Shown piece after piece: positions 1 to 16,565 of a stretch of DNA of 16,565 bases; the stretch's first letter is position 1, and every line of letters starts with the position of its first letter. The notes under the pieces are model-generated. The model searched no databases. It saw only the letters and a list, made by a program, of their open reading frames with translations, and was not told the DNA's origin. Both the position numbers and the translations under genes were made by a program. The stretch lies in IMG/VR virus record IMGVR_UViG_2667527959_000010, positions 1 through 16,565 of that record; one strand, given 5' to 3'. The stretch is from a virus. Taxonomy: Duplodnaviria > Heunggongvirae > Uroviricota > Caudoviricetes.

Positions 1-46
1 AGCTCCATCAGCAAAAGGGGATGATAAGTTTATCACCACCGACTAT

Positions 47-709
47 TTGCAACAGTGCCTCGACGGGACCAAATACAGGAATGTCTGGGTTGTTGGTGAT
101 CTGCATGGTTGCTACACCAGACTGATGTCCGAACTCCATCGTGTGGATTTTGACCCGGCGCAGGATTTACTGATATCGGTCGGCGACCTTATCGATCGCG
201 GCACCGAAAATGTTAAATGCCTGGAGCTATTGCAGATGCCATGGTTCAGAGCGGTTATGGGCAACCATGAGCGGCTGATGATTGATGCGTTAAGTCCTGA
301 TGGCAACGTGAATAACTGGCTAATGAATGGCGGTCAATGGTTCTTCATGCTGGACGCTGATCAGGAAATATTAGCCAGGGCGCTGGTGGAGTTGGTAAGA
401 CGACTGCCCTATATCATTGAGTTGAACACCGGGCAAGAAACTATCGTTATAGCTCATGCCGACTATCCGGATAATGAATATCAATTCGGTAAGGAGGTGC
501 CGCTTTTCAATGTTGTCTGGGCGCGCGAGCGTATCAGTGATTCGATGGATGATATTGGTGGCGAAATTTCGGGCGCAGATCGTTTTATCTTTGGTCACAC
601 TCCGGTGAAAAGCCCGAAGACATTCTGGAATCAGCATTATATCGACACTGGTGCCGTATTTTGCGGAAACCTGACATTGATGAAAGTGAAAGGTGATGGT
701 GCAGCATGA
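47..709 (+). CDS. Serine/threonine protein phosphatase, PPP family (lambda phosphatase-like)
   Basis: 220 aa with PPP metallophosphatase motifs GDLHGC, GDLIDRG, GNHE and HADYP, and an N-terminus that aligns with lambda phosphatase as recalled. Only in-frame start after the upstream stop at 26-28 is TTG at 47, with no clear SD, so the start is uncertain. May correspond to a P1 phosphatase gene by position (from memory, unverified). Confidence 0.85.
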
Positions 710-1407
710 AGATTGCTTTAGTTCTTCGCTCTGGTGGTGACTATAACGCTTCCGATGTGCAGTGGCTGGTTAATCAACTGCCAAAAGGCTATGAAATTAT
801 TTGCCTGACAGACCTGAAGCGTTTACATGTGCCAGGCGTTAAGGTTGTCCCATTAATCAACCAGTGGCAAAAGTGCCGTGGCTGGTGGGCGAAAATCGAG
901 TTGTTCCGACCTGATATAACCGATGATCTGTTCTATCTGGATTTGGACACGGTTATTGCCGGTGATATACGCCCAATTCTTGAGAATCCACCAACCAACT
1001 TCACCATGCTTAGGGATTTTTACCATCCACAATATCGTGGCAGCGGTGCTCTGTGGATACCAAATAGTGTAAAAGCGCATATCTGGAGTGCATTCTGGCA
1101 AGATCCGGAAGGTTGGATTGCTCGTTGTGTTACAACTGAGTGCTGGGGGGATCAGGGGTTCTTGCGGAAGGTTATGGGCGATGACACACCAGCATTTCAG
1201 GATCTGTATCCAGGATGGTTTGTAAGTTACAAGGCCGATGTTGTGGAACCTGGTTCAAAATATGCGAGCGCGCGTTACTCCAGGGGGAATGGGACATTAC
1301 CAAAGGACTGCCGAATAATCTTTTTCCACGGCAAACCGCGGCCTCGCGAAGTGTCAGAGGATTGGCTTCCCCTCATTAGCTCGTTTTTTGAGCGAGAATT
1401 AGAATAA
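706..1407 (+). CDS. Hypothetical protein, 233 aa, with DxD-like motif (YLDLDTV)
   Basis: Long ORF whose ATG overlaps the phosphatase stop (ATGA), suggesting translational coupling. N-terminus [11 protein letters not shown] and LDLDT resemble a nucleotide-sugar transferase fold, but this is only a weak motif impression. Confidence 0.6.
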
Positions 1408-1408
1408 T

Positions 1409-1425
1409 ATTGCTCTAATAATTCA
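1409..1425 (+). promoter_or_regulatory. C1 repressor operator-like site (ATTGCTCTAATAATTCA)
   Basis: 14/17 match to the P1 C1 operator consensus ATTGCTCTAATAAATTT, with the first 13 positions identical. Overlaps the stop codon of the upstream ORF. Confidence 0.6.
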
Positions 1426-1436
1426 ATATTTTTAAT

Positions 1437-1464
1437 ACGTGATGTACACTCATCACGTTTTTTA
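1437..1464 (+). terminator. Rho-independent terminator-like hairpin
   Basis: Perfect 8-bp stem ACGTGATG/CATCACGT with 6-nt loop, followed by TTTTT(A)TT. Sits immediately after the phosphatase/233-aa operon. Confidence 0.55.
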
Positions 1465-1474
1465 TTAGAGCAAT
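1458..1474 (-). promoter_or_regulatory. C1 repressor operator-like site, inverted orientation
   Basis: Reverse complement reads ATTGCTCTAATAAAAAA, 14/17 to consensus. Forms an inverted pair with the 1409-1425 site and overlaps the terminator T-tract. Confidence 0.55.
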
Positions 1475-1488
1475 CCATAAGGTGCACT

Positions 1489-1707
1489 ATGTGGCCATTC
1501 CGACGGAAATATCACTACTGGCTGATCGCCTTTGTTACACCGTCCGGCGATATCAGGCATGTCATCACCCGGTATCGCAACAAGAGACTCACCTTAGCCA
1601 GAATTTTACAGGCTGCCATTGGTGAGGGACTGGATACAAATTGCGTAGTCCTTCCACCTTCATACTTAGGAAAAATGACCGAAGCACAAGCTAATACGGA
1701 ACTTTGA
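1489..1707 (+). CDS. Hypothetical protein, 72 aa
   Basis: ATG at 1489 preceded by SD AAGGTG (1479-1484) at 4-nt spacing. Stop TGA at 1705-1707 lies one base before the ATG of the next ORF, suggesting coupling. No recognisable motifs. Confidence 0.55.
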   Translation: MWPFRRKYHYWLIAFVTPSGDIRHVITRYRNKRLTLARILQAAIGEGLDTNCVVLPPSYLGKMTEAQANTEL

Positions 1708-1708
1708 A

Positions 1709-2971
1709 ATGAGCACTTCAGCACAAAACCAATCAATCGAAAATGTATCTATCCCTGACGTCCTGAATGCCGGTATCCCGGCCATTATTCAGAACATCCG
1801 AGCCGCGCAACGCCGCGTTAGTTGTGATGACCTCACAGCACGTTTTTTTGATAATGCGGTTCAGTCAGCTGAGATGCTTCACGCACAGCTTATTGATGTT
1901 TATAACGCAGAAGCTGATAGCCATAACGACCTGGTAGATGCAGCTGAAAATATGCAGTTGGATCTCGGTCTGAAGGGTAAAGAAATTGAAGATCTTCAGC
2001 TGCAAATTGAGCATTTGAAACGCCAGCAACAGGATGCCATCGACGATGCGACGCATGACGCCAACCAGCGTGCTGATAATGCCGAACGTATAAGCATTGA
2101 GTTGGAAACAAAACTCAATGAAATGACCGCTATGGTTGAGCTGCGGAATTCACAGATTTCAACACTAAAATCTCAATATAAAGAGATCATGAAACTTGAT
2201 CCTTTTAACCTTGAGAAACGTTATAACAAAGCCAAAAGCGAGCGCCAGGAACTGCGTAAGCAGGTCGCCGACCTTAACCAACAGCTCAAAAAGGCTATTA
2301 AAGATGCAAGCGAGGCGCGCGTGGCATTTGCTAATAAAAAAGCAGAGGTTACCGAGCTGGTTAATGAAAATGCTAAATTTGCGATGCTCAAGAAGGAAAT
2401 GTATGGCATTACTGAGCGCCGTTTTCCTGCAAGCAAACTCCATCCGACGTTAGGGCAAATCTCATTCTTCCCGCGCCTCCTGGCTTATGGAATCTCATCG
2501 CCTAAAGAGTTCAATAACGAGCGTCCTTATATCGTTTCTAAGCTGGACTTTGCTTATCAGTTCTGCTGTGACATGGGCTATGCCATTGATATCCGTATCA
2601 ACGAATGGTTGATGCCAAACTTCCAGCCGTTGGCCATTTTCCGCGAGTTCCAGCCGGAAGGTTGGGTAGAGTTCTTCCATGAAATGATCTGTAAAGAGAT
2701 GGAAAGCCGCCGCCCGGAACTGGTCCGCCGTGTCGAGTGGGCGCAAGAGGTTATGTTGGCAGATGCAGAGCTACCGTTCGAACCGGAATTCATTGATGAA
2801 CTGGCCAATAAAGGGCTGCATAGCCTATTTGATGTAGTTACCCGCCGTCATGAGCAGTTGGTTGTTGAATTGGGTTTAGAAGAAACTGCGGCAAGAAGAC
2901 TTCTCGATGTTTGCTATGCACGTAGCGATGCATGGGAAAAAGAGAACGGCGGTACTATTTACGTTCGCTGA
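1709..2971 (+). CDS. Hypothetical protein, 420 aa, N-terminal coiled-coil-like region and C-terminal globular domain
   Basis: Long uninterrupted ORF followed by a strong terminator. The N-terminal ~230 aa are rich in E/K/Q/L heptad-like sequence (e.g. LQLQIEHLKRQQQ, ELRKQVADLNQQLKK); the C-terminal ~190 aa are Cys/aromatic-containing with no motif I can assign. Confidence 0.8.
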   Translation: MSTSAQNQSIENVSIPDVLNAGIPAIIQNIRAAQRRVSCDDLTARFFDNAVQSAEMLHAQLIDVYNAEADSHNDLVDAAENMQLDLGLKGKEIEDLQLQIEHLKRQQQDAIDDATHDANQRADNAERISIELETKLNEMTAMVELRNSQISTLKSQYKEIMKLDPFNLEKRYNKAKSERQELRKQVADLNQQLKKAIKDASEARVAFANKKAEVTELVNENAKFAMLKKEMYGITERRFPASKLHPTLGQISFFPRLLAYGISSPKEFNNERPYIVSKLDFAYQFCCDMGYAIDIRINEWLMPNFQPLAIFREFQPEGWVEFFHEMICKEMESRRPELVRRVEWAQEVMLADAELPFEPEFIDELANKGLHSLFDVVTRRHEQLVVELGLEETAARRLLDVCYARSDAWEKENGGTIYVR

Positions 2972-2990
2972 TAGTTACAGTGTCACTTTT

Positions 2991-3025
2991 AATGCTGGTG
3001 GAGTGCGTCCCACCAGCATTTTTTT
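2991..3025 (+). terminator. Rho-independent terminator
   Basis: 11-bp perfect stem AATGCTGGTGG/CCACCAGCATT with 8-nt loop, followed by a T-run at 3021-3025. Lies 20 nt after the stop of the 420-aa ORF. Confidence 0.7.
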
Positions 3026-3044
3026 CGTCCAATGAGGAGGGCAT

Positions 3045-3551
3045 TTGAGTATTTTCAACCAACACGCACACCATGAACGTCCGTATATCGTCATAGTTGA
3101 TATTGATGGAACAATATCAGAGGCAACTGAAGACAGACTGCATTTGCTTCCGCCACCAGGTAAAGGTGCATTAACAAAGGACTGGAACGAGTTTAATCTC
3201 GCCTGTGACACTGATACTCCCATAACTCCAGTTATTGATATTGTGCGCCAGTTATATAACGTTTACACGGTCTGGTTTGTAACCGGGCGCTGTGAGATCG
3301 CAAGGGATAAAACATGAGCCTGGCTGCGAAAGTACGTAACAAACGGGGATGAGCCTTTGCTATCTATGCGTCCTGCCACCGATGACAGAAATGACGGTCC
3401 AGCAAAGATTGATCTCCTTAAGAAAATTGGTCTAAGCAAAATTGCGTTCGCGCTGGAAGATAAGATTGAAGTGGCGCGTGTTTTCAGGCGTCACGGCGTG
3501 CTTACGTTAATGGTCAGGGAGTATGAAAACGCGCTTCTTCATCAGCAATAA
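3045..3551 (+). pseudogene. HAD-superfamily phosphatase (polynucleotide 3'-phosphatase/Pnkp-like domain) interrupted by a single in-frame TGA at 3315-3317
   Basis: ORFs 3045-3317 and 3357-3551 are in the same frame, separated only by one TGA and 13 sense codons. The joined product has HAD motif I IVIVDIDGT, motif II-like WFVTGR, and a C-terminal K/DD region resembling the T4 Pnkp phosphatase domain as recalled. TTG start with strong SD GAGGAGG (3034-3040). Confidence 0.6.
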
Positions 3552-3567
3552 TTGCTCTAATAAATCT
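3551..3567 (+). promoter_or_regulatory. C1 repressor operator (ATTGCTCTAATAAATCT)
   Basis: 16/17 match to the C1 operator consensus. Overlaps the TAA stop of the phosphatase ORF and a TTGATA -35-like hexamer (3567-3572); a GAAAAT -10-like hexamer follows at 3590-3595. Confidence 0.7.
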
Positions 3568-3589
3568 TGATATTTAAAGCAGAGAAGGT

Positions 3590-3623
3590 GAAAATAAAAA
3601 CATGCCGCAAGGGGCGCGGCATG
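3590..3623 (-). terminator. Hairpin with T-tract on the minus strand (possible terminator for leftward transcripts)
   Basis: Perfect 8-bp stem CATGCCGC/GCGGCATG (3601-3623) with 7-nt loop. On the minus strand it is followed by TTTTTATTTT; on the plus strand it is not followed by a U-tract. Confidence 0.45.
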
Positions 3624-3651
3624 TATCAAATCAATCACAGGAGCTGAAGAT

Positions 3652-3738
3652 ATGAACACGGCATTCAAAATCATTATGGCCGCGATCTATTTCTGGCTGT
3701 TCTCTATCACTTTTGGCAGCATTGTCGCGCATGGGTAA
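3652..3738 (+). CDS. Candidate small hydrophobic peptide, 28 aa (MNTAFKIIMAAIYFWLFSITFGSIVAHG)
   Basis: ATG at 3652 with SD AGGAG (3639-3643) at 8-nt spacing. Product is predicted to be a single hydrophobic helix. Too short for the supplied ORF track; sits downstream of a C1-operator-overlapped promoter-like sequence. Confidence 0.35.
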   Translation: MNTAFKIIMAAIYFWLFSITFGSIVAHG

Positions 3739-3772
3739 GGGGAGTATATTAGCCATTTGGAACCCCACGGTC

Positions 3773-3802
3773 TCTTGCGGGTTTAATTAAGAACCCGCAA
3801 GA
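3773..3802. other. Stem-loop at the hsdR 3' end (11-bp stem TCTTGCGGGTT/AACCCGCAAGA, 8-nt loop)
   Basis: Perfect inverted repeat 15 bp from the hsdR stop codon. The A-run lies 3' on the plus strand and the T-run 5' on the minus strand, so it is not a canonical intrinsic terminator in either direction. Confidence 0.4.
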
Positions 3803-3817
3803 AAAATACGAATTGGG

Positions 3818-6800
3818 CTATATTTTTCCGCCTACGCCTTTAAACTTCTCAATAAACGAGACGATTTTCTGGAAAACTGCCTGTTTTTTCGTTTTATATT
3901 GCGGATTCAACGGACTAAGTTTTGGTAATGTTTCGTTTAATTCTGTGCCATTTTCGGTGGCGTATTCGCGTTTTAAAGACGTGCGAATATAGCGTTTTGC
4001 TGCATCTTCATTAAGATTTTCTTCTTTTATCAATGCTTCTGCTTCACGTTGCTGTTCGCGTTGAGCAAACGTAAAGAATGCGTCAATGATGCTGGCTTTG
4101 TCCGGTAAATCATCCAGGTTCGTTTGCTGAATAAAATCGACCACCAGGCCCTCTTTAGCACGGTTCCCTAGGCTTGAACGAATTAAGCGTTTGACCTCTT
4201 CGATCATTTCGCCCTTGCCTTTATTTTGTCTGTTGTGTTCGAAAATCAGTCCAAGGATATAATCCAGGTTTATTTCCTGAGACTTCAGCAAATCGACCTC
4301 AAAAACTACGTCATCCCAGTCAGTGGTTGATTTCTCTTTTTTCTCAGCTTCTTTCTCACGGCGCTGCCAGTCGCGAATATCGTTATAGGCAGAACGATAA
4401 TCCTGAATCTTGCGATCAGCAGGGAGACGAATTGTTTGCAATTCAGCGAGCTTTTCATCATCCACATAATGTTCTGCTTTGAATTTTTCTACTGCAACAG
4501 GATCGCTAAGATCGATTTGTTGCAGGGCTTTCAGCGTGGCAAATTCATCATAGTTTTGCAGGATGTTCTCGGTACGCAGGTATTCACCAAACAGTTTAAC
4601 GAAGTCTTTCTTCTCTTTTTCACTTTCAATACTGGTAGGGTCAGGGAACCGTTGTTCCAGTTCTGAAACTACTGTCATGAAGCCGCGTTTAGCTTCACCA
4701 GTGGCAGCATCAGTAAAGCCTTCCATATACTCTGCATAACTCTTTTCTAAAACCACATTTTTGGTATTTTTGTCACCAAACAGCGTTATGGCATCAATAG
4801 TTGAGCGTTCCAGATCCCGGAAAGTGACGATATTACCGAAGGTTTTAGTTGCATCATAAATACGGTTGGTGCGGGAAAATGCCTGCATCAAGCCGTGAAA
4901 ACGCAGGTTTTTATCGACGAATAGCGTGTTCAATATTGGAGCATCGAAGCCAGTTAAAAACATCCCCACGACAATTAACAGATCGATATCCTGATTTTTA
5001 ACCCGCTGGGCTAAATCACGATAGTAGTTCTGAAAACCGTTACTGTCGGTGCTGAAGTTAGTTTTAAAATAGCTGTTATACTCACGAATTGCAGCATCAA
5101 GAAACTCTTTAGCACTGCTGTCCATTGCGCTGGTATCAAAAGTTTCATCGGAAATTTCACCAATGGCATTTTGTTCTTCATTGGCAGCAAAGGAGAAGAT
5201 TGTCGCAATATGCAGCGGTTTATAGGTGGCCGATTTATTAGCTGCTTCCTCTTGTAACCGTTTAAACGTCGCGTAATAGGCTTTTGCAGCATCCACGCTG
5301 CTCACTGCCAACATAGCATTAAAACCTTTTGAGCCAGGGAAGGTACGGTGGGTTTTCTGGCGGAAATTATTCAGAATATATTGCGTGATTTCCTGAATAC
5401 GCATGGGATGAAGAAACGCCTGCTGATTTTCAGCCGCACTCAGTTTTTTCTCGTCAGTTTCTGTCTCTAAAGACTTAAACTGTGGCCGCACATCGTTGTA
5501 GTCCACCTTGAATTTGAGCACTTTTTCGTCACGAATCGCATCGGTAATTACATACGAATGCAATTCACGACCAAATACGCTGGCGGTTGTTTCTGAGCCT
5601 AAGGCGTTTTCCGGGAAAATAGGGGTGCCGGTAAAACCAAACTGATAATAGCGTTTGAATTTCTTCTTCAGGTTTTTCTGCGCTTCTCCAAACTGGCTGC
5701 GGTGGCATTCATCAAATATAAACACCACTTGCTGATTATATACAGGCAGGTCGCTTTCTGCTTTCATCAGGTTATTGAGTTTCTGAATAGTAGTGACGAT
5801 AATTTTGTTATCGTCCTTATCCAGATTTCGTTTAAGGCCTGCGGTATTTTCCGAGCCGTTGACGCTGTCTGGCGAAAAACGCTGATATTCCTTCATGGTC
5901 TGGTAATCGAGGTCTTTCCTGTCGACCACGAAGAAGACTTTATCAATAAAGTCCAGCTCTGTTGCCAGACGCGCGGCTTTAAAGCTGGTGAGGGTTTTAC
6001 CAGAACCGGTAGTGTGCCAGATATACCCACCGCTTTCCGGTTTTGACCAGTTCTTCGCTGTAAAGGAGCTCTTAATTTTCCACAGAATGCGCTCGGTGGC
6101 AGCAATCTGGTACGGTCGCATCACCAGTAGCGTCTGACTGCTGTCAAAAACGCTGTAGTTCACCAGAACATTAAGCAGAGTATGTTTCTGGAAAAAGGTA
6201 GCGGTAAAATCTTTGAGGTCTTTAATCAGCGTGTTGTCTGATTTCGCCCAGTTCATGGTGAAGTCAAAACTGTTTTTATCGCGCTTTGTTGTGTTGGCAA
6301 AATAACGGGTATCGGTGCCGTTAGAAATGACAAACAGTTGCAGATACTTAAACAGGGAATTTTCGCTGTTAAAACTCTCTTTACTGTAACGATGTATCTG
6401 GTTGAAAGCCTCACGAATCGCCACGCCGCGCTTTTTCAGTTCGATTTGTACCAGTGGTAAGCCATTAACCAGGATCGTGACGTCATAACGGTTAGCATGA
6501 GAACCCGTCTGTTCAAACTGCTGGATAATCTGCACCTTATTGCGCATGAGATTCTTTTTATCTATCAAATAGATGTTCTCAAGTCGCTCGTCATCAAAAA
6601 TAAAGTCGCAAATATAGTCGATATGGATTTTACGGGTCTTATCCAGAATGCCATCGCTCGGGTTGTCCAGATACTGCTCCGTGAAACGCCGCCACTCGCT
6701 GTCATTAAACACCACACCATTGAGGCTCTGAAGCTGTTCCCGAACATTGGACAGCATAGCCGACTGAGATTTTACGGATATAAATTCATAGCCCTGATTC

Positions 6801-6934
6801 CGCAGGTCCTGAATCAGTTCACGTTCCAGGTCCGATTCGCTCTGGTAGCTGTCGCCTGTTTGCTCAGCTTTGATGTACTTATCAAGGACGATAAAGTTAT
6901 TGGATTCAGCAATGGTGTGTGTTTGATGAGTCAT
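3818..6934 (-). CDS. hsdR: Type I restriction enzyme R subunit (HsdR), type IC-like
   Basis: 1038 aa. Walker A TGSGKT, DEAH-box FDECHR, and an N-terminal PD-(D/E)xK-like nuclease motif (D...IELKK). Length matches EcoR124I HsdR as recalled. SD AAGGA upstream of the ATG at 6934. Confidence 0.95.
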
Positions 6935-7055
6935 AGCGCATCCTTTGTGCCGCCTGGCAAGGGCCGGAAGGGCGTTAAGAGTGACTTCCGGCGCGTAAAA
7001 AATAGTCTATATACAGACCGGGTGTTAAGGTGGCCCGGTCGGTAGCAATGGTCAA

Positions 7056-8312
7056 TTAATTACTGACAGTTTCAGGTGTTGGGAAACTGAACAGTAAATC
7101 ACGATAGTACTCGTATTGTTTCTGGCGCAACTCGATTTCACGCGGAAGACCTTCGGTGATGGAGTTGGTCAGGGTGTCGAATTTATCGAGCAGAGCAGAT
7201 ATTCGCTCTTGTTTCTGTTTATCAGGCAATGGCACTGGTAATGTTTTTATAATATCTGCATTCAAGTTACTGACCGACCCGCTATTGATTTTACTTTCCC
7301 AATAATTTTTCACCTTTTTTGATGAAAGATAGTGATACAGATAATCAGCATTTAATTTTTCACCAAAATTGCTGATTGATGCCCATCCATCATGGATAGC
7401 TCCGGTTATCCTTAAAATATATGGTCTGCCAAAGCTCATAGAGTTAGAAATGACGAAATCACCGGGGTTCAAGATTCGCGATTTTTGGGCACCCTCTGCA
7501 GTTATTTTTTGTAAGGTTTTGTCAATGTATTTAGAGCCGGGTATAGTATCTCCGATTTTAATCCATGGGATACCATTTCCTTGTTCAGTAAGATAATTAA
7601 CAATTGGTCTGGGGGATGCCCCTCGTTGTATTTTGGCTACTTCTCCCAATGCCTTCCACTCAACCTCACCCTCATCAAAACTCAGCAATTGGTCGCGATA
7701 GTAGTTGTACTGTTTTTTACGCATGTTAAGCTCAGCGGTAAGCTCAGCGGTAAGTGCAGTAAATTTATCCAGAATCCGAACGATTTCAGACTGGATGGCA
7801 AGGGATTTTTCCGGATTATCCGGGCAAGGGATTGGGATGAGTAGTTTTGACATCAATGCATTTGAGCTTAGGTTCGGTTGTGCTCCGCCCCCGGCGAGGA
7901 TATAAATAGTCTCTGTATTTAACAATAAAAAATGGTATAAATAATTATTGTTTAGAATATTTTCTTTGGGTATGAATTTCCCAACCCGTTGGTTAAGATA
8001 ACATTTTGTTCCTTTTTTATAAATTCCTACCTTTCCTGTAGTGGCACCTGACATTGCAATCAATATATTTCCCATAGATACCTCAAAGGAGGATAAATCT
8101 TCCTTGTAATCATTTAGTGAAAAGTATTTCACCTCATCTAAGTCAACATTAAATCCATCTATATTTGTGATTCTGACTATCGGTAACCCAGTTTCTTTAA
8201 ATAAGCTGCTTTTAAATGCAAATCCATTTTTAAAATCACAAACATCCTTCAAGGGTTTCCACTCAACCTCAACCCCATCCAGCAATTTTTCCAGATAACT
8301 TAACTCGCTCAT
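7056..8312 (-). CDS. hsdS: Type I restriction-modification specificity subunit (HsdS), type IC-like
   Basis: 418 aa with two variable target-recognition regions separated by the conserved central region ...[33 protein letters not shown], and a C-terminal conserved repeat ...[36 protein letters not shown], as in the EcoR124I/EcoDXXI family. Confidence 0.95.
7730..7753 (-). repeat. Tandem 12-bp repeat (2 copies) encoding TAEL-TAEL in the HsdS central conserved region
   Basis: GCTCAGCGGTAA x2 on the plus strand, which is ACCGCTGAGCTT x2 in the coding sense. A degenerate partial third unit follows. Confidence 0.8.
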
Positions 8313-9871
8313 TTTTGCACCTCGCAGCCTTCAATTTCAGCCACAATTGCATCAATATCTTTACGCAACTGGTCGATTTTGCTGACCGTGGTTTTCAGCT
8401 CAGCATTCAGCTCACCGATATCGATAATTTCGCGGTTATCTTTCGCTTCCACATAGCTGCTCACCGACAGGTTATAGTCATTCGCGACAACGGCTTCAAA
8501 CGCGACAGATTTTGCCAGATGAGCAACATCTTCCTTGCTGGCAAATACCTGCATAATTTTTTCTATATGGGCATCGGTCAGAATGTTGTTGTTAGTCTCT
8601 TTTTTGAACAGTTCGCTGGCATCAATAAACTGAACTTTGGTATCCGTTTTATGTTTAGACAGCACCAGAATATTTACGGCAATGGTGGTGCCAAAGAACA
8701 GGTTCGGTGCGAGTGAAATCACGGTTTCGACATAGTTATTGTCGACCAGATACTGACGGATTTTCTGCTCCGCGCCGCCACGGTAAAAAATACCCGGGAA
8801 GCAGACAATCGCGGCGCGACCTTTGGCCGAAAGATAGTTCAGCGCATGTAGTACAAACGCAAAGTCAGCTTTGGATTTGGGGGCCAGAACGCCAGCCGGG
8901 GCAAAACGTTCATCGTTAATCAGCGTCGGGTCATCGCTGCCAATCCATTTCACCGAATACGGTGGGTTAGATACGATGGCGTCAAACGGTTTTTCATCTC
9001 TGAAGTGCGGCTCAGTCAGCGTATTGCCCAGCTTGATATCAAACTTGTCGTAGTTGATATTGTGCAAAAACATGTTCATACGCGCCAGGTTATAGGTCGT
9101 ATGGTTGATTTCCTGACCGAAAAAGCCTTCTTCGATGATATGGTTATCAAACTGTTTTTTCGCCTGCAACAACAGTGAGCCGGAACCCGCTGCCGGGTCG
9201 TAGATTTTGTTAACGCTGGTCTGCCCGTGCATAGCCAGTTGTGCAATCAGCTTGGAGACGTGCTGCGGTGTAAAGAACTCACCGCCTGACTTACCGGCAT
9301 TTGCCGCATAGTTAGAAATCAGGAACTCATAGGCATCACCGAACAGGTCAATCTGATGTTCGTTGAAGTCACCAAGTTTTAACCCTTCAACCCCTTTCAG
9401 AACCGCAGCCAGGCGGGCATTTTTATCTTTAACGGTGTTACCCAGGCGGTTACTGGTGGTATCGAAATCAGCAAACAAACCTTTGATGTCAGCTTCTGAA
9501 GGATAACCGTAAGCAGAACTTTCGATAGCAACGAAGATGCTGTTTAAATCTGCATTCAGTCTGTCATTAGTATTTGCTTTCGCAGCTACGTTGCAGAAAA
9601 GCTGACTGGGGTAGATGAAGTAGCCTTTAGTTTTGATGGCATCGTCTTTAATGTCATCAGTAATTACGCTGTCATCCAGTTTCGCATAACAGATACTGTC
9701 ATCACCGGCTTCAATATAGCTGGAAAAATTTTCGCTGATAAAACGGTAGAAAAGTGCGCCCAGAACGTATTGCTTAAAATCCCATCCATCGACCGAACCC
9801 CTGACATCGTTAGCAATTTGCCAGATTTGACGATGAAGCTCTGCACGTTGTTGAATACTTGTCATTTTCAT
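8309..9871 (-). CDS. hsdM: Type I restriction-modification N6-adenine DNA methyltransferase subunit (HsdM)
   Basis: 520 aa. AdoMet-binding motif [10 protein letters not shown] and catalytic motif NPPY ([10 protein letters not shown]). Its stop overlaps the hsdS start by 4 bp. N-terminus [13 protein letters not shown] matches my recollection of EcoR124I HsdM. Confidence 0.95.
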
Positions 9872-10010
9872 CCACTTATTTCAGGCTTATGTAATTGGCG
9901 GTGATTCTACAGCAACTTGGATGCTTTAGCAGTTCGGACATTAGGCTACGAATGACCTGCCTAGAGGTTTGTTAAGCCGCAAAGTGCTGGTGCTTTATGC
10001 CTGTGAAGTT

Positions 10011-10040
10011 TATAATTGTGTACACATAACGAGTACACGA
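10011..10040 (+). promoter_or_regulatory. phd-doc promoter -10 (TATAAT) and Phd/Doc operator palindromes
   Basis: TATAAT at 10011-10016 is followed by the perfect palindrome GTGTACAC (10018-10025) and a second near-copy GAGTACAC (10031-10038), just upstream of SD GAGGTG and the phd ATG. Consistent with the autoregulated phd-doc operator described for P1. Confidence 0.6.
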
Positions 10041-10047
10041 GGTGTTT

Positions 10048-10269
10048 ATGCAATCCATTAACTTCCGTACCGCGCGTGGCAACCTTTCTGAAGTGCTCAA
10101 CAATGTTGAAGCCGGGGAAGAGGTTGAAATCACCCGCAGAGGCCGTGAGCCAGCAGTAATTGTCAGCAAGGCTACTTTCGAAGCCTACAAAAAAGCGGCG
10201 CTGGATGCTGAATTTGCATCCCTGTTTGACACCCTGGACTCCACCAACAAGGAACTGGTTAACCGATAA
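10048..10269 (+). CDS. phd: Phd antitoxin (prevent host death)
   Basis: 73 aa, [41 protein letters not shown]..., matching P1 Phd as recalled. SD GAGGTG 4 nt upstream. The ORF track's 10042 GTG start adds two residues; ATG 10048 is preferred. Confidence 0.95.
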
Positions 10270-10649
10270 TGAGGCATATATCACCGGAAGAACTTATTGC
10301 GCTTCATGATGCGAATATAAACCGCTACGGCGGCCTGCCGGGCATGTCAGATCCGGGTAGGGCAGAGGCCATTATCGGGAGAGTTCAGGCCAGAGTTGCC
10401 TACGAAGAGATCACCGACCTTTTCGAAGTCTCCGCCACCTACCTGGTGGCTACAGCGAGAGGGCATATATTCAATGATGCCAATAAGCGTACCGCGCTAA
10501 ACAGTGCGCTGTTATTTCTACGCCGTAACGGGGTGCAGGTATTTGATTCACCTGAACTGGCAGACCTTACCGTAGGGGCTGCGACCGGAGAGATATCTGT
10601 ATCTTCTGTCGCCGACACGTTACGTAGATTGTATGGTTCTGCGGAGTAG
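10269..10649 (+). CDS. doc: Doc toxin (death on curing), Fic-family kinase
   Basis: 126 aa with Fic motif [11 protein letters not shown]. Start overlaps the phd stop (TAATG). Matches P1 Doc as recalled. Confidence 0.95.
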
Positions 10650-10653
10650 ATTA

Positions 10654-10833
10654 ATGGCACGCAAATACAACAAATTGTCCCGTGAAGCGTTAAAGATGCT
10701 TCTTGATGGCGTGAGTCGCCGCAAGGTAAAGCAATACCTGGTTGGTAAGCAAATTGGAGTCAGGACCGCTATTGCTGTGTTATGCCGTCAGGAAATGGTT
10801 GCGCTTAAACAGAGAATGCCGGGCAGCAGATAA
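10654..10833 (+). CDS. Small basic protein downstream of doc (pdcA-like by position), 59 aa
   Basis: ATG at 10654 with SD GGAG about 9 nt upstream. An alternative in-frame ATG at 10633 lies inside the doc 3' end without an SD. K/R-rich sequence; named only by position after doc. Confidence 0.5.
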   Translation: MARKYNKLSREALKMLLDGVSRRKVKQYLVGKQIGVRTAIAVLCRQEMVALKQRMPGSR

Positions 10834-10860
10834 AGCCCAATCAGTGATGAAAGGTGTGAT

Positions 10861-11904
10861 GTGAAAGCCGTAATTACTCCCTTTGTACAGAAAGAGCTTG
10901 GCCTCGCCACGTTCAAAGTGGATCAGGAGGTCAGAAAGCTGGTGGAGGCTGGCCGTAAATTTATTATGGAGCCGGTGCCGCGTGAGTTAATCGAGCACAT
11001 GGAAGACGGCCTCGTTGTTACCGAGCAAACCATGGCAACAAATGAGGCGTTGCAGCCGTTTTTTAACAGCGATGAACTGTTTCGCCGTATTGGTGGAATT
11101 GACGCGCTGGTGGCGTGGTTGCGTAGGAAAGAGGGTCAATGCCAGGCCGCAGATCGTAGTTGGTGTGACAACCATATTGTCCACGCTGAACGAGACAATA
11201 GCGCGGTGTTGTTGTGCTGGCATCACGATAACCATTATCGGATGCGTGGTTTTAATGAGCTGAAAGAAACGCTGCACAATAATCGCGTTAACTGGATACT
11301 GGATGTCGCCCGTCAGGAAATGGGCCTTTCAAATAGCCATGATTTAAGTATTCAGGAGCTGTGCTGGTGGGCTTTCATGCGCAACATGATGCACCTGATG
11401 CCGGAAGAAGTCTGCCGCATATCAATAAATAAGATGAAGGCTACTCCGCAGGATAGCGGACCTCTGAAAGAGGCGGATATTCGCCCGTATGACGATCGCG
11501 CTACAGCATATGTGCAGATGATGGAAGAACGCGCCGCGCCGATGCGTGCAAAAGTATGCCCTGTGGATGTTGACTCCGACCCTGGCATGGCGCATTTCAA
11601 AATACCAAAACTGCAATCGCTAAAATTACCTGAGTACATGGACTTTGTTGCTTCCCGTCCATGCTGTGGGTGTGGAGCTGCGGGAGCTGGCGCTCACATT
11701 ACGCCTTATATCGTTCGTCATAGTCGATTATGCGCGCATGACATTTACGCAATTCCTCTGTGCCAGTCATGCCAGCGTGATATTGAGCGTGACCGCGATA
11801 ATTGGGAGAAGACGCACGGTAGGTTGGCGATGCATCAACGATTGTTCTTTGATTACGCGCTTGGAGTGGGCGTTATCACAAGTCATTCGTCGAGTGTTAG
11901 ATAA
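10861..11904 (+). CDS. Hypothetical protein, 347 aa, with C-terminal Cys/His cluster (pdcB-like by position)
   Basis: GTG start at 10861 with SD AAGGTG (10851-10856). C-terminal region PCCGCG...H...H..LCAHD...LCQSCQ suggests a metal-binding module. Function unknown. Confidence 0.75.
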
Positions 11905-11905
11905 A

Positions 11906-11922
11906 ATTGCTCTAATGTATTG
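11906..11922 (+). promoter_or_regulatory. C1 operator-like site upstream of lpa (ATTGCTCTAATGTATTG)
   Basis: 13/17 match to the C1 operator consensus, first 11 positions identical. Overlaps a TTGCTA -35-like hexamer (11920-11925) spaced 16 bp from a TATTAT -10-like hexamer (11942-11947). Confidence 0.6.
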
Positions 11923-11992
11923 CTATTTCTTTAATCGAGGGTATTATATTCCACGTTGATTAGTTGACATGGGCTAATCAGTAGGTGACAGG

Positions 11993-12445
11993 ATGTTACT
12001 TAACTGGCAGGGACGCCACTTCATGGAAATAAATCACTCACGAATAACATCGTACGAGATTGCGGATTACATGATCCGCACTAAATCTCTTCTATCAGCG
12101 AAAGAACTCGCAGCAATTCTTGAAAAGGAATACCCGCATCTGGATGTCGATAAGCGCGATGTTTATCTGCGCTTAAAGGCTATCGCTGTGTCTAAGTATT
12201 CGTCTGTTTTGATAGATGACAGTACACGCCCACGTAGATTTCAGATCCACTCTCTGAATCCTGAATTCTTTCGCCGTAGCCGCGCTCCGCGCCGGTTTGA
12301 TGAAAAACTCCAGAACGAACTCTATATGACGCAGGACGAAAAGGAACGCCGGGAGCACCAGCCTTGGGTAATGGCGCGTCAACTTTTCAATAAGGTGGCC
12401 CGTCAGCACCGTCATTACGGTAATGCCACATCCGCACGTATCTGA
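11993..12445 (+). CDS. lpa: Late promoter activator Lpa (P1 gene 10-like)
   Basis: 150-aa basic protein in the conserved P1 position between doc/pdc and pacA, preceded by a C1 operator. Assignment is by synteny and size, not by a recalled sequence. An internal ATG at 12023 is an alternative start. Confidence 0.75.
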   Translation: MLLNWQGRHFMEINHSRITSYEIADYMIRTKSLLSAKELAAILEKEYPHLDVDKRDVYLRLKAIAVSKYSSVLIDDSTRPRRFQIHSLNPEFFRRSRAPRRFDEKLQNELYMTQDEKERREHQPWVMARQLFNKVARQHRHYGNATSARI

Positions 12446-12455
12446 TTGATTGCTT

Positions 12456-12474
12456 GCCCGTTCCGGGCCTTTTG
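12456..12474 (+). terminator. Short GC hairpin plus T-run (weak terminator or attenuator candidate) between lpa and pacA
   Basis: GCCCG-TTC-CGGGC followed by CTTTTG, 11 nt after the lpa stop. Confidence 0.35.
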
Positions 12475-12530
12475 ACATGTGACTTTCGTTACCCTCGCGT
12501 CAAAAAGAGTTTTTACGAAAGGAAGCATAA

Positions 12531-13724
12531 GTGACCTGGGACGATCACAAGAAGAATTTTGCTCGCCTGGCGCGAGATGGTGGTTACACCATCGCACAGT
12601 ATGCCGCCGAGTTTAATCTTAACCCTAATACCGCACGTCGTTATCTCCGTGCATTCAAAGAAGACACCGGAACAGCGGACAGCCGTAAGCCAAATAAGCC
12701 TGTCAGGAAACCACTAAAAAGCATGATCATTGATCACGCTAATGATCAACGTGCAGGTGATTACGTTGTGGCTGAAATGGCTGAAAAACAAAAAGTTAAT
12801 GCTGTTGTTAGTGCCGCAGTCGAGAACGCTAAGCGCCAAAATAAGCGCATAAATGATCGTTCTGATGATCATGACGTGATCACCCGCGCCCACCGTACCT
12901 TACGTGATCGCCTGGAACGCGACACCCTGGATGATGATGGTGAACGCTTTGAATTCGAAGCTGGCGATTACCTGATAGATAACGTTGAAGCGCGGAAGGC
13001 CGCGCGCGCTATGTTGCGTCGGTCCGGGGCCGATGTTCTGGAAACCACTCTTCTGGAAAAGTCTCTTTCTCATCTCCTTATGCTGGAGAACGCCAGGGAT
13101 ACGTGTATTCGCCTGGTGCAGGAAATGCGCGATCAGCAAAAAGACGATGATGAAGGTACTCCGCCTGAATACCGTATCGCGAGCATGCTAAACAGCTGTT
13201 CCGCGCAGATAAGCAGCCTGATCAACACCATTTACAGCATCCGGAATAACTATCGAAAAGAAAGCCGGGAGGCGGAAAAGCACGCTTTATCTATGGGGCA
13301 AGCTGGCATTGTTAAGCTGGCATACGAACGAAAGCGTGAAAATAACTGGTCAGTGCTGGAAGCGGCTGAATTCATCGAGGCGCATGGAGGAAAAGTGCCG
13401 CCCCTGATGCTGGAGCAAATCAAAGCCGATCTGCGTGCTCCTAAGACCAATACCGATGATGAGGAAAACCAAACAGCATCTGGCGCTCCATCACTTGAAG
13501 ATCTGGATAAAATCGCGCGAGAACGGGCCGCCAGCCGCCGCGCTGATGCGGCATTGTGGATTGAGCATCGTAGAGAAGAAATTGCCGATATCGTCGATAC
13601 AGGTGGTTATGGTGATGTCGATGCGGAAGGCATATCAAACGAAGCATGGCTTGAACAGGATCTGGACGAAGACGAGGAGGAAGACGAAGAAGTTACCCGC
13701 AAACTGTACGGGGATGATGATTAA
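12531..13724 (+). CDS. pacA: Terminase small / pac-recognition subunit PacA
   Basis: 397 aa, GTG start with SD GGAAG. N-terminus [28 protein letters not shown] matches P1 PacA as recalled. Acidic C-terminal tail. Contains the pac site. Confidence 0.9.
12724..12882 (+). other. pac packaging site: clustered TGATCA/G hexamers carrying Dam GATC sites, inside pacA
   Basis: Left cluster TGATCA at 12724, 12731 and 12743, plus a degenerate TGATTA at about 12758. Right cluster TGATCG at 12854, TGATCA at 12866 and 12877. Architecture matches the P1 pac description (4 left + 3 right hexamers). Confidence 0.75.
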
Positions 13725-15208
13725 TGGCCAGAAGTTGCGTAACGGACCCACGTTGGCGCGAGCTGGTGGCGCTATATCGTTATGACTGGATTGCGGCCGC
13801 TGATGTGTTGTTTGGGAAGACACCAACCTGGCAGCAGGATGAGATCATTGAGTCCACGCAGCAGGACGGCAGTTGGACAAGTGTGACCTCCGGCCATGGT
13901 ACTGGTAAATCGGATATGACGAGTATCATTGCAATACTCTTCATCATGTTTTTCCCCGGCGCTCGCGTCATTCTGGTCGCTAACAAAAGACAGCAAGTCC
14001 TTGATGGTATTTTCAAATACATAAAGAGCAATTGGGCTACTGCTGTTAGCAGATTCCCGTGGTTGTCGAAGTATTTCATTCTTACAGAAACGTCTTTTTT
14101 TGAGGTGACTGGCAAGGGTGTTTGGACAATATTGATAAAGTCCTGTCGCCCCGGAAATGAGGAGGCGTTGGCTGGTGAACACGCCGATCATCTCTTGTAT
14201 ATCATCGACGAAGCGTCGGGTGTGAGTGATAAAGCATTCAGTGTGATAACAGGTGCGCTGACCGGTAAGGATAACCGTATTCTGCTTCTTTCCCAGCCTA
14301 CGCGACCTTCAGGCTATTTCTACGATTCACACCACAGACTAGCTATTCGCCCGGGAAATCCTGATGGATTGTTTACTGCGATAATACTGAATAGTGAAGA
14401 ATCTCCGCTTGTAGATGCAAAATTTATACGAGCAAAACTTGCGGAGTATGGCGGTCGTGATAACCCCATGTACATGATCAAAGTACGTGGTGAATTTCCC
14501 AAATCTCAAGATGGCTTTCTTCTTGGTCGTGATGAGGTTGAGCGGGCGACGCGGCGAAAGGTCAAGATTGCCAAAGGATGGGGCTGGGTTGCATGTGTTG
14601 ACGTTGCTGGTGGCACAGGACGAGATAAGTCCGTTATTAATATCATGATGGTGTCCGGCCAGCGAAATAAACGCCGTGTAATCAACTATCGTATGCTGGA
14701 ATACACAGACGTTACAGAAACGCAGTTAGCCGCCAAGATTTTCGCAGAATGTAACCCAGAACGGTTCCCGAACATAACCATAGCTATTGATGGCGATGGC
14801 TTGGGGAAATCGACGGCTGATCTAATGTACGAACGCTATGGCATTACCGTCCAGCGTATCCGCTGGGGTAAAAAGATGCACAGCCGTGAAGATAAAAGCC
14901 TTTATTTCGATATGCGCGCTTTCGCGAATATTCAGGCGGCAGAAGCTGTAAAATCAGGGCGTATGAGGCTTGATAAGGGGGCTGCGACTATAGAGGAAGC
15001 ATCAAAGATACCGGTAGGGATAAATTCCGCAGGTCAATGGAAGGTGATGTCAAAGGAAGATATGAAGAAAAAACTCAACCTGCACTCACCGGACCATTGG
15101 GATACATATTGTTTCGCTATGTTGGCGAACTATGTTCCCCAAGATGAAGTGCTTAGCGTCGAAGACGAAGCGCAGGTTGATGAAGCTCTGGCATGGCTTA
15201 ATGAATAA
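13724..15208 (+). CDS. pacB: Terminase large subunit PacB
   Basis: 494 aa. Start overlaps the pacA stop (TAATG). Walker A-like GHGTGKS and Walker B-like [10 protein letters not shown]. Confidence 0.9.
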
Positions 15209-16404: not shown

Positions 16405-16565
16405 AATTATGCCTCACTGTATTGACAACACAGAGCCTGAAGCTCTGACCTACTGTTTCACCCATGATCCATGCTGGGGTAATCTAACAACATTGCGCTG
16501 TGTGTAAGGGAAGGTGCGAACAAGTTCCTGATATGAGATCATCATATTCATCCGGAGCGCATCCC

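Follow-up and report, generated by a model that had tools for sequence, protein, structure and literature searches.

IS26-truncated ppp and the adjacent pmgQ, encoding a predicted GT8-like glycosyltransferase, in a P1-like phage-plasmid

The two overlapping open reading frames near the left end of the DNA analysed here (16,565 nt of the IMG/VR virus record IMGVR_UViG_2667527959_000010, hereafter the window) are very probably explained, jointly, as the tail of the P1 operon pmgN-pmgO-pmgP-ppp-pmgQ, the upstream part of which has been removed by IS26. The window was identified as a P1-like phage-plasmid (IncY) that is near-identical to the E. coli plasmid pAW1.7_1 and, between positions 60 and 1800, shows 96-97% nucleotide identity to P1, P7, RCS47 and SJ46. 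Window coordinates correspond to L001 coordinates minus 2441 and the features of P1 were transferred from the annotation of AF234172. Both open reading frames are approximately 96-97% identical to their counterparts in P1, ppp and pmgQ, and are therefore real genes and not chance open reading frames. As these are known P1 genes of long-standing annotation, the finding is mostly ordinary, and the apparent odd start codon of the first gene (TTG) was left behind by an IS26 rearrangement. Rearrangements of this kind are among the commonest events in enterobacterial plasmids. It has been shown that ppp, pmgQ and their operon neighbours are dispensable for plaque formation by P1 in the laboratory (PMC10695390).

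The first open reading frame runs from TTG at position 47 to TGA at 707-709 and is ppp, a homologue of the lambda phosphatase gene. The part that belongs to ppp itself occupies 60-709 on the plus strand and encodes a 5'-truncated Ser/Thr phosphatase of the lambda NinI/ORF221 type, an assignment made from the alignment with P1 and from matches to 1G5B, PF00149 and PHROG 246. The product aligns with residues 6-221 of the lambda phosphatase (1G5B) with an E-value of 5.5e-93, scores 58.9 bits against the Pfam family Metallophos (PF00149), where the cut-off is 21.5, and falls within the NinI-like PHROG 246. All of the catalytic motifs are retained, with GDLHG, GDLIDRG, GNHE, HAD (AHAD) and GHTP aligned with those of 1G5B; these are the motifs of a PPP-type metallophosphatase of the lambda (NinI) subfamily (GDxHG, GDxxDRG, GNHE and the His ligands). 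The original prediction of a lambda-type phosphatase with a full PPP motif set, made from the letters of the sequence, is thus confirmed by all three matches. The gene is nevertheless incomplete, with the native start codon absent and the P1-derived part beginning only at codon 15. In P1 and pAW1.7_1 an ATG overlapping the pmgP stop codon serves as the native start, and in the intact relatives the initiating ATG lies 10 or 15 codons before the junction codon (native residue 11 or 15). The window protein therefore belongs with P1 Ppp and lambda NinI (ORF221, 1G5B), sharing family and catalytic motifs with both and approximately 97% identity with P1 Ppp over the retained part, but it differs from P1 Ppp in that IS26 sequence stands in place of the first 14 codons, including the native ATG, and in that the upstream promoters and the coupling partner pmgP are missing.

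The IS26 sequence at the left of the window was delimited by base-level reconstruction of the junction. Positions 1-59 are the left end of IS26 on the minus strand (the reverse complement of IS26 nucleotides 1-59) and are identical to pAW1.7_1 61284-61342, a stretch that abuts a CDS at 60575-61279 annotated as 'IS6-like element IS26 family transposase'. The same 59 nucleotides are matched by more than 5000 plasmid records. The transposase gene would be expected further left on the minus strand, beyond the window edge. The 14-bp terminal inverted repeat of IS26, GGCACTGTTGCAAA on the minus strand, can be read from the sequence at 46-59, and this repeat is found at both ends of the 820-bp element in pAW1.7_1 (L003) that bears the annotated IS26 transposase. 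The TTG at 47-49 on the plus strand lies inside the terminal repeat and is IS26 sequence, not ppp. P1-derived sequence begins at base 60, corresponding to the second position of ppp codon 15; ppp spans 80760-81452 in P1 and the window match begins at P1 position 80803. No contiguous match to window 1-400, in which the IS26-ppp junction lies, or to the whole window was found in INPHARED, PLSDB or the complete RefSeq E. coli genomes, and an exact 36-mer across the junction was absent from GTDB representative genomes, IMG/VR and JGI metagenomes. The match to pAW1.7_1 falls into two pieces. The junction, known from one sequence, may conceivably have been created by joining at a repeat during assembly.

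Comparison with pAW1.7_1 suggests how such a junction could have formed. That plasmid has its IS26 copy 1,453 bp further upstream, identically oriented and with the same end toward ppp. Base-level reconstruction showed that exactly 1,453 bp are missing from the window relative to pAW1.7_1, as a contiguous block flush with the end of IS26, and that this block contains the pmgM remnant, pmgN, pmgO, pmgP and the start of ppp. Over the remainder of the comparison (window 60-14980) the two sequences differ by 4 substitutions in total. The deletion may have arisen by intramolecular replicative transposition of IS26 ('adjacent deletion') or, by another route, through insertion of a second IS26 copy and subsequent recombination. 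Adjacent deletions caused by IS26 have been documented (PMC9330008; PMC12670165), and the deletion in the window resembles these in beginning exactly at the IS26 terminus and in removing a contiguous 1,453 bp, but differs in that the event is deduced from a comparison of plasmids and was not itself observed. A rather unlikely alternative is that IS26, or an IS26-bounded transposon, inserted independently into ppp with no adjacent deletion. Were this so, pmgN-pmgO-pmgP and the first 14 ppp codons would survive on the far side of the element, where the sequence would read ...TATCACCGTATCGACGGG and then the IS26 right end, with an 8-bp direct repeat TCGACGGG; after an adjacent deletion no such target duplication would be expected. 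Such an insertion is compatible with a window that ends inside IS26, with the far side beyond view, and that resembles a short-read contig lying between two repeats, IS26 (1-59) and an ISKpn26-like end (16509-16565). Against it, the IS26 copy of pAW1.7_1 is placed 1,453 bp upstream in this orientation and with this end toward ppp, and the presence of only 4 substitutions over approximately 15 kb outside the 1,453-bp gap is the pattern expected from an adjacent deletion.

An adjacent deletion would have left a decapitated ppp without the promoters PpmgN and LPpmgL, without ribosome entry coupled to pmgP and without a start codon. The TTG at 47 is an artefact of the IS26 junction and not the native start. 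It had been described as the only possible start of the phosphatase gene, and this holds within the window but not for the gene, which is truncated, owes its TTG to IS26 and natively starts at ATG. There is no stop codon upstream of 47 in the ppp frame, which remains open to the left window edge and, assuming a standard IS26 copy, reaches an in-frame ATG inside IS26 13 nt past that edge (coordinate -13). No Shine-Dalgarno sequence precedes TTG 47, as had also been remarked in the original prediction, there being no purine-rich stretch in caccaccgactat, and none precedes the IS26-borne ATG at -13. A consensus scan found no sigma-70-like promoter on the plus strand in 1-705. The ends of IS26 can donate a -35 box to hybrid promoters and an outward-facing hexamer, TTGCAA, is present at 47-52 inside the terminal repeat. 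A hybrid promoter built on this hexamer was considered and rejected, as the plus-strand scan of 1-705 was empty and the -10 candidates are poor: the hexamers 16-18 nt after TTGCAA (CCAAAT, CAAATA and AAATAC), compared by eye, match the -10 consensus at 2-3 of 6 positions. Because neither a Shine-Dalgarno sequence nor a promoter was found in these consensus scans, the truncated ppp is probably an unexpressed, dead remnant despite its intact catalytic core.

It is improbable, by comparison, that the phosphatase is a complete gene that initiates at TTG or another non-canonical start, is coupled in translation to the transferase gene and forms a functional pair with it. Every catalytic motif is in place, the alignment to the lambda phosphatase extends from residue 6, the ATGA overlap with pmgQ is real, the frame continues without a stop into IS26, where a standard copy would supply an in-frame ATG at -13, and donation of a -35 box by IS26 is possible, all of which would suit such a gene. 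The TTG and all bases before 60 are however IS26, the intact relatives use an ATG 10 or 15 codons upstream, neither a Shine-Dalgarno sequence nor a promoter-like site is present and even the best -10 candidates agree with the consensus at no more than 2-3 of 6 positions. The ppp of the window is best annotated as a 5'-truncated pseudogene and not as a TTG-initiated gene.

The second open reading frame, pmgQ in P1 and hdmD in P7, lies at 706-1407 on the plus strand and encodes a GT8-like protein of 233 aa with a predicted GT-A fold (P1 identity; PHROG 1962; AlphaFold). Its ATG overlaps the ppp stop as ATGA at 706-709 (plus strand), an overlap that is common to essentially all P1-like loci and that had been predicted correctly along with the LDLDT motif of the protein, here YLDLDT. 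A Shine-Dalgarno-like AGGTGA at 691-696 on the plus strand, 9 nt before the pmgQ ATG and inside the end of ppp, may serve in its translation; pmgQ would thus have kept a site of its own, yet is probably little transcribed in the window. The protein is 96.6% identical to P1 PmgQ and matches PHROG 1962 with an E-value of 9e-127. It has the same length as P1 PmgQ and P7 HdmD (PHROG 1962, 'glycosyltransferase' in RefSeq) and its gene likewise lies between ppp and the C1 operators of pmgR. The difference from P1 lies not in the protein but in the deletion of the conserved partners pmgO and pmgP from the window.

The AlphaFold model of PmgQ (pLDDT 95, pTM 0.91) was compared with the PDB using Foldseek. 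The top 50 matches were all of GT8 type, with E-values of 1.5e-8 to 1e-6 and TM scores of 0.44-0.59, and include Gat1, glycogenin, WbbM, GlyE, LgtC, XXYLT1 and LARGE1. A profile of the PmgQ family searched against the PDB identified Gat1, GlyE and glycogenin; in these alignments the DxD, the GDQG and the C-terminal His coincide. The DxD is D79/D81 (YLDLDT), and D79, L80 and D81 do not vary among 55 homologues; in the GDQG at 148-151, which aligns with the GDQG of glycogenin, G148, D149 and Q150 are nearly invariant; and in FHGKPRP, which aligns with HFLGQTKPW of glycogenin, P211 is invariant and H208 and G209 nearly so. The GT-A fold, the DxD, the GDQG loop and the C-terminal His that is the third metal ligand (H-x-x-G-x-x-K/R-P) are the hallmarks of GT8 and all are found in PmgQ, as they are in the CAZy GT8 enzymes glycogenin, Gat1 (6MW5), GlyE (5GVV) and LgtC (1G9R). 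From these enzymes PmgQ differs in showing 11-18% identity and TM scores of about 0.55-0.59, in being shorter and single-domain, in having motifs of its own (VLRSGG and GWWxKxxLF) and in being missed by PF01501; no Pfam family, PF01501 (Glyco_transf_8) included, was matched up to an E-value of 1. A single-sequence search of the PDB returned Gat1 at an E-value of 0.21 only, and detection needed the profile and the structure model. PmgQ is confidently predicted from the model to be a GT8-like glycosyltransferase and is best called GT8-like, not a classified member of GT8. The early guess of a nucleotide-sugar transferase, based on the DxD motif, is therefore strengthened by structure prediction, which gave a glycosyltransferase-like GT-A fold, and by the aligned DxD, GDQG and His. 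The enzyme would act as a Mn2+-dependent retaining glycosyltransferase using a UDP-sugar. A search of the literature on the family found data on essentiality and expression only.

A functional module of phosphatase and transferase, as suggested in the original prediction, was rejected when gene neighbourhoods were compared. Among 34 distant PmgQ loci (PmgQ identity at most 52%) none has a Ppp homologue within approximately 5 kb, and adjacency of ppp and pmgQ is restricted to close relatives of P1, those with a PmgQ identity of at least 73%. In L056, a more distantly related P1-like element, the order is pmgO-pmgP-pmgQ, with pmgP followed directly by pmgQ and no ppp. A PmgO-like (Maf-like) gene was found on the same strand in 22/34 of the distant loci, usually directly upstream of pmgQ, and one locus (L074) carries a natural PmgQ-PmgO fusion. 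PmgO/PmgP and PmgQ are therefore adjacent in P1, in pAW1.7_1 and in these 22 distant loci, with pmgO and pmgP missing from the window. These neighbourhoods suggest that the conserved working partner of PmgQ may be the Maf-like PmgO/PmgP family and not Ppp. The top PDB match of the PmgO model was the Maf flagellin glycosyltransferase 5mu5, although this match is weak (Foldseek E 1.5e-3, TM 0.59), and the PmgO profile gave weak matches to 5mu5 (profile E 0.01) and to Cst-II. A sub-threshold match to the Pfam family MptE-like was seen in 18 of the 22 PmgO members. The Maf flagellin glycosyltransferases (5MU5) and the Cst-II sialyltransferases are thus the best fold and profile matches of the PmgO family, in which GPS and GYD/HWHG-type motifs are conserved, but the similarity to Maf is weak (E 1e-2 to 1e-3) and PmgO has approximately 200 aa compared with 660 for Maf. 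A literature search for Maf-like enzymes within the capsid modules of phages found nothing relevant.

The surroundings of the distant PmgQ homologues bear on the possible target of the enzyme. Approximately 26 of the 34 are found within modules for head or tail assembly, in the company of Maf-like and methyltransferase genes. Upstream of the homologues there are matches to capsid (16), portal (8), prohead protease (14; the families overlap) and FkbM methyltransferase (7) genes; downstream there are head-completion (15), tail-completion (15), gp10-like (12) and connector (8) genes and two families of tail tube genes (8 and 4 matches). In many unrelated siphovirus-like and podovirus-like prophages of Proteobacteria the gene pair is flanked by the major capsid gene on one side and by connector or tail genes on the other; a prophage of Onishia taeanensis (locus L007) is one example of the capsid-adjacent arrangement. 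Because the distant homologues are placed in this way, the most likely target of a PmgO/PmgP and PmgQ pair would be a virion protein. It is put forward tentatively that pmgO, pmgP and pmgQ form a protein-glycosylation cassette (Maf-like plus GT8-like, often with an FkbM-type methyltransferase) that decorates the capsid or other virion proteins. The three genes of P1 have been labelled 'putative morphogenetic' since 2004, and the PmgQ/PmgO result gives a testable hypothesis for genes that have been without known function for twenty years. If the cassette reading is true, the phosphatase gene of P1 would be a lineage-specific insertion into the cassette, IS26 would have destroyed the cassette in the window and left pmgQ orphaned, and virion glycosylation would reach well beyond the mycobacteriophages. 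The spread of virion glycosylation among phages bears on the immune recognition of therapeutic phages. In the mycobacteriophage Che8 and its relatives, phage glycosyltransferases are thought or have been shown to decorate capsid proteins (Freeman et al. 2023, cited in PMC11256854). The distant homologues of PmgQ and PmgO may be likened to these in adjoining capsid genes; the comparison is by analogy only, as the hosts are Proteobacteria, the enzyme families may differ, and a glycan on P1 or on these other phages is hypothetical. The main text of the P1 virion proteome paper makes no mention of ppp, pmgO, pmgP or glycosylation.

Doubtful, but possible, is a role for PmgQ in modifying a glycan of the host envelope (LPS core or O-antigen) instead of virion proteins, for example to keep progeny off debris or to exclude other phages. 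In keeping with this the LPS enzyme LgtC, a GT8 member, is among the fold matches of PmgQ, and some homologues are not part of structural modules: they occupy accessory-gene sites beside tail fibre or integrase genes in P2-like prophages and, in Pantoea, one is a lone chromosomal gene. Such locations agree with a host-glycan target no less well than with a virion target. LPS core glucose is the target to which P1 adsorbs, which would also suit such a role. Modification of glycans by prophage-encoded enzymes that blocks phages is well known (PMC11990801). Set against this are the approximately 26 of 34 distant homologues that lie in head or tail modules with Maf-like and methyltransferase genes, and the placing of the P1 operon under a late promoter and one repressed by C1, so that its expression belongs to lytic growth and not to lysogeny.

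That PmgQ glycosylates phage DNA (base hypermodification) is highly improbable. P1 DNA is not known to be glycosylated. Phage glycosyltransferases that decorate DNA do exist (bioRxiv 10.1101/2023.12.21.572611), and one or two DNA methylases lie near distant PmgQ loci. No genes forming 5-hydroxymethylpyrimidine were found near these loci, however, the neighbours being capsid, connector and tail genes and FkbM-type methyltransferases, and the fold matches of PmgQ are all GT8 enzymes directed at proteins or glycans. Given the structural-gene neighbours and the lack of 5-hydroxymethylpyrimidine genes, DNA glycosylation was set aside.

Downstream of pmgQ the window follows the P1 annotation (AF234172) on the plus strand, with the C1 operators OpmgRa at 1409-1425 and OpmgRb at 1458-1474 and the promoter PpmgR between them, within 1409-1474. 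A terminator-like hairpin lies at 1437-1458 (plus strand). The next operon begins with pmgR (1489-1707) and continues with pmgS (1709-2971), both placed from the same annotation. At its other extremity the window carries an ISKpn26-like end (16509-16565).

Bases 60-1800 of the window are 96-97% identical to P1, P7, RCS47, SJ46 and other P1-like phage-plasmids, in whose records the two ORFs are annotated as ppp, encoding a Ser/Thr phosphatase, and pmgQ (hdmD). In the P1 record (AF234172) these genes occupy 80760-81452 and 81449-82150. The genes are those of P1, and the finding as first described amounts to known biology together with a common rearrangement. Nearest to the window is pAW1.7_1, an IncY plasmid from E. 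coli AW1.7, with four substitutions across 60-14980. The ppp ORF contains GDLHG, GDLIDRG, GNHE, HAD and GHTP, the complete PPP motif set of the original prediction, and the retained product matches Pfam Metallophos and PHROG 246 (NinI-like). Its alignment with 1G5B, the lambda phosphatase, spans lambda residues 6-221 (E 5.5e-93), leaving only about the first six lambda residues without a counterpart. The reported overlap between the phosphatase stop and the ATG of the 233-aa ORF was confirmed as ATGA. In AF234172 the C1 operators OpmgRa and OpmgRb, the promoter PpmgR, pmgR and pmgS come after pmgQ and are colinear with window 1409-2971. A terminator-like hairpin of pmgQ (1437-1458) sits within 1409-1474 between the two operators, which flank PpmgR, so that the pmgQ terminator interleaves with the pmgR promoter and operators.

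The ppp-frame ORF runs from TTG at 47 to TGA at 707-709 with no stop 5' of 47; the frame is open to the left edge, and TTG 47 is therefore merely the first start-like codon that the window happens to hold. Bases 1-59 have no match in any P1-like record. They are matched by more than 5000 plasmids and are identical to pAW1.7_1 61284-61342, adjoining an annotated IS26 transposase gene (minus strand). Base-level reconstruction matched window 1-59 to IS26 nt 1-59 in reverse complement, with the 14-bp terminal repeat GGCACTGTTGCAAA at 46-59. P1-derived sequence takes over from base 60, which is position 2 of ppp codon 15, and the TTG ‘start’ (tatTTGcaacagtgcc) is thus IS26 sequence. In intact relatives ppp initiates at ATG (annotated in P1 as MAEEYMIAPTIYHRIDGTKYRN); NCBI PGAP takes the second ATG, in an ATGA overlap with the pmgP stop. 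What had been read as an unusual TTG start is an IS26 scar and, as had been noted, no Shine-Dalgarno sequence was found 5' of it. The IS26-ppp junction was absent from all collections searched (INPHARED phages, PLSDB plasmids, complete RefSeq E. coli genomes, GTDB representatives, IMG/VR and JGI metagenomes).

In pAW1.7_1 an IS26 that is oriented identically, and turns the same end to the right, lies 1,453 bp further upstream, within pmgM. Compared with that plasmid the window lacks exactly 1,453 bp, comprising the pmgM remnant, pmgN, pmgO, pmgP (pmgO and pmgP being 1290-2476 of the P1 locus, L001) and the first 14 ppp codons. The loss begins precisely at the IS terminus, as is characteristic of intramolecular replicative transposition, and adjacent deletion by this route is well documented for IS26 (PMC9330008, PMC12670165). 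An IS26 adjacent deletion probably removed the 1,453 bp flush with the IS26 terminus. As the far side of the IS26 copy lies beyond the window edge, a separate simple insertion into ppp is kept as a rival to adjacent deletion, albeit a less likely one.

Truncation has deprived ppp of two promoters (PpmgN, under C1 control, and the late LPpmgL), of its coupling partner pmgP and of its start codon. Should the IS26 copy be standard, an in-frame ATG lies within it at window coordinate -13 and would give a 240-aa fusion, also without a Shine-Dalgarno sequence. No site was found in a promoter scan of the plus strand over 1-705. The TTGCAA hexamer of IS26 forms hybrid promoters elsewhere; here the -10 candidates downstream of it are poor. 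To judge from these sequence features, the truncated ppp is most likely a remnant that is not expressed, although its catalytic core is intact. The AGGTGA 9 nt 5' of the pmgQ ATG is kept, and pmgQ probably receives little transcription in the window. Their loss is tolerable: deletion and CRISPRi surveys (PMC10695390) showed both genes to be non-essential for P1.

The 233-aa ORF (706-1407) carries YLDLDT. Its product, PmgQ, has no Pfam family match and matches PHROG 1962 (‘glycosyltransferase’; E 9e-127). An alignment of 55 sequences, from 136 homologues found, showed V6, G10, D36, W60, K63, F67, D79, L80, D81 and P211 to be invariant and G148, D149, Q150, H208 and G209 nearly so. The best 50 PDB matches of the AlphaFold model (pLDDT 95, pTM 0.91) are all family-8-type glycosyltransferases, namely Gat1, glycogenin, WbbM, GlyE, LgtC, XXYLT1 and LARGE1 (E 1.5e-8 to 1e-6, TM 0.44-0.59). 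The sequence profile independently matches Gat1 (3.3e-8), GlyE (1.7e-5) and glycogenin (5e-4), in alignments that pair DLD with DAD, GDQG with GDQG and FHGxPRP with HFLGQTKPW. The transferase call, made weakly at first, is borne out by this predicted fold, the profile and the DxD, GDQG and His motifs, and on the model PmgQ is a GT-A transferase. It is termed GT8-like rather than a classified member since the curated GT8 model misses it. It is probably Mn2+- and UDP-sugar-dependent and retaining. Two Salmonella homologues (P0003 and P0004, 73% identical to PmgQ) are named ‘phosphohydrolase’ by NCBI, which mismatches the GT8-like fold; the name may have slipped from the neighbouring ppp.

A functional pairing of phosphatase and transferase had also been proposed. 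Adjacency of Ppp and PmgQ was confined to near relatives of P1, in which PmgQ is at least 73% identical, and at none of the 34 loci with a PmgQ homologue of at most 52% identity did a Ppp homologue lie within about 5 kb. In a more distant P1-like element (L056) the order is pmgM-pmgO-pmgP-pmgQ-pmgR, with pmgP running straight into pmgQ, which suggests that ppp was inserted in the P1 lineage into a set of genes that already existed. On this comparative gene order the proposed coupling is not supported and Ppp is rejected as the partner of PmgQ. The neighbour that is conserved is the PmgO/PmgP family, encoded on the same strand as the PmgQ homologue in 22 of the 34 distant loci, usually directly upstream. 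At one locus (L074 4989-6251, IMGVR_UViG_3300006931_000010) a single 421-aa ORF combines two domains, one PmgQ-like (residues 5-217, 40% identity) and one PmgO-like (residues 228-367 by BLAST), a natural fusion connecting the two families. PmgO and PmgP of P1 are paralogues of one Maf/MptE-like family (PHROG 4603, ‘alpha-2,3-sialyltransferase’). Pfam MptE-like matches 18 of 22 PmgO/PmgP members below threshold, and a PmgO profile finds 5MU5, a Maf flagellin glycosyltransferase, at E 0.0098 and Cst-II at 0.06, both weakly; 5MU5 is also the top fold match of the PmgO model (pLDDT 88.6; E 1.5e-3, TM 0.59). These data suggest that PmgQ cooperates with PmgO/PmgP. The remaining interest lies in a conserved Maf-like and GT8-like cassette inside phage assembly modules, largely outside the window, where half of the cassette is deleted.

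In Onishia and Martelella prophages the homologue lies between the major capsid gene and connector or head-completion genes. Upstream ORFs (within 4.6 kb) at 30 distant viral loci included 16 major capsid proteins, 8 portals, 7 FkbM methyltransferases and 14 prohead-protease matches (ClpP 7, SDH-type 5, S49 2; these families overlap), and those downstream (within 2.5 kb) 15 head-completion, 15 tail-completion and 12 gp10-like proteins, 8 connectors, and tail-tube proteins of two families (8 and 4 matches). In a podovirus-like group (IMG/VR contigs L075, L077, L078, L080) the PmgQ-like gene comes after those for the major head protein and a methyltransferase and before tail tubular A/B, with the PmgO-like gene absent. 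By analogy with mycobacteriophage virion glycosylation (Freeman et al., 2023, as cited in PMC11256854), the target of PmgQ may be a virion protein. Host LPS or O-antigen is the main rival as target, a tentative one: the LPS enzyme LgtC is among the GT8 fold matches and a minority of homologues occupy accessory-gene positions of P2-like prophages, beside tail fibre, integrase or terminase/portal genes, whereas the setting in structural modules and, in P1, regulation in the lytic phase count against it. Glycosylation of DNA is unlikely. A lone homologue (49% identical) in the Pantoea floridensis chromosome (L004/L005 6001-6633) lies between lpdA and acnB, away from any phage gene or PmgO-like gene, and may therefore be domesticated for a host function.

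Elsewhere in the window a complete type I restriction-modification system on the minus strand (3818-9871; hsdR 3818-6934, hsdS 7056-8312, hsdM 8309-9871) stands where P1 has pmgT, pmgU, pmgV, upfM-O, hot, lxr and humD, an arrangement common to many P1-like plasmids. Two ORFs at about 3045-3551 make up a split pap gene (P1 polynucleotide-kinase-type 3'-phosphatase, Pfam HAD_PNKP), and the near-identical copy in pAW1.7_1 is recorded as a pseudogene carrying an internal stop. The window closes with 57 bases (16509-16565) from the end of an ISKpn26-type IS5-family element. These bases are multicopy in E. coli genomes and are not at the corresponding position in pAW1.7_1; with IS26 at 1-59, this suggests a repeat-bounded short-read contig. 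Within pacB (13724-15208) the window and pAW1.7_1 differ by an indel at about 14981; the ORF is intact in the window (494 aa), whereas in pAW1.7_1 it is annotated in two pieces, a 422-aa terminase and a 53-aa fragment.
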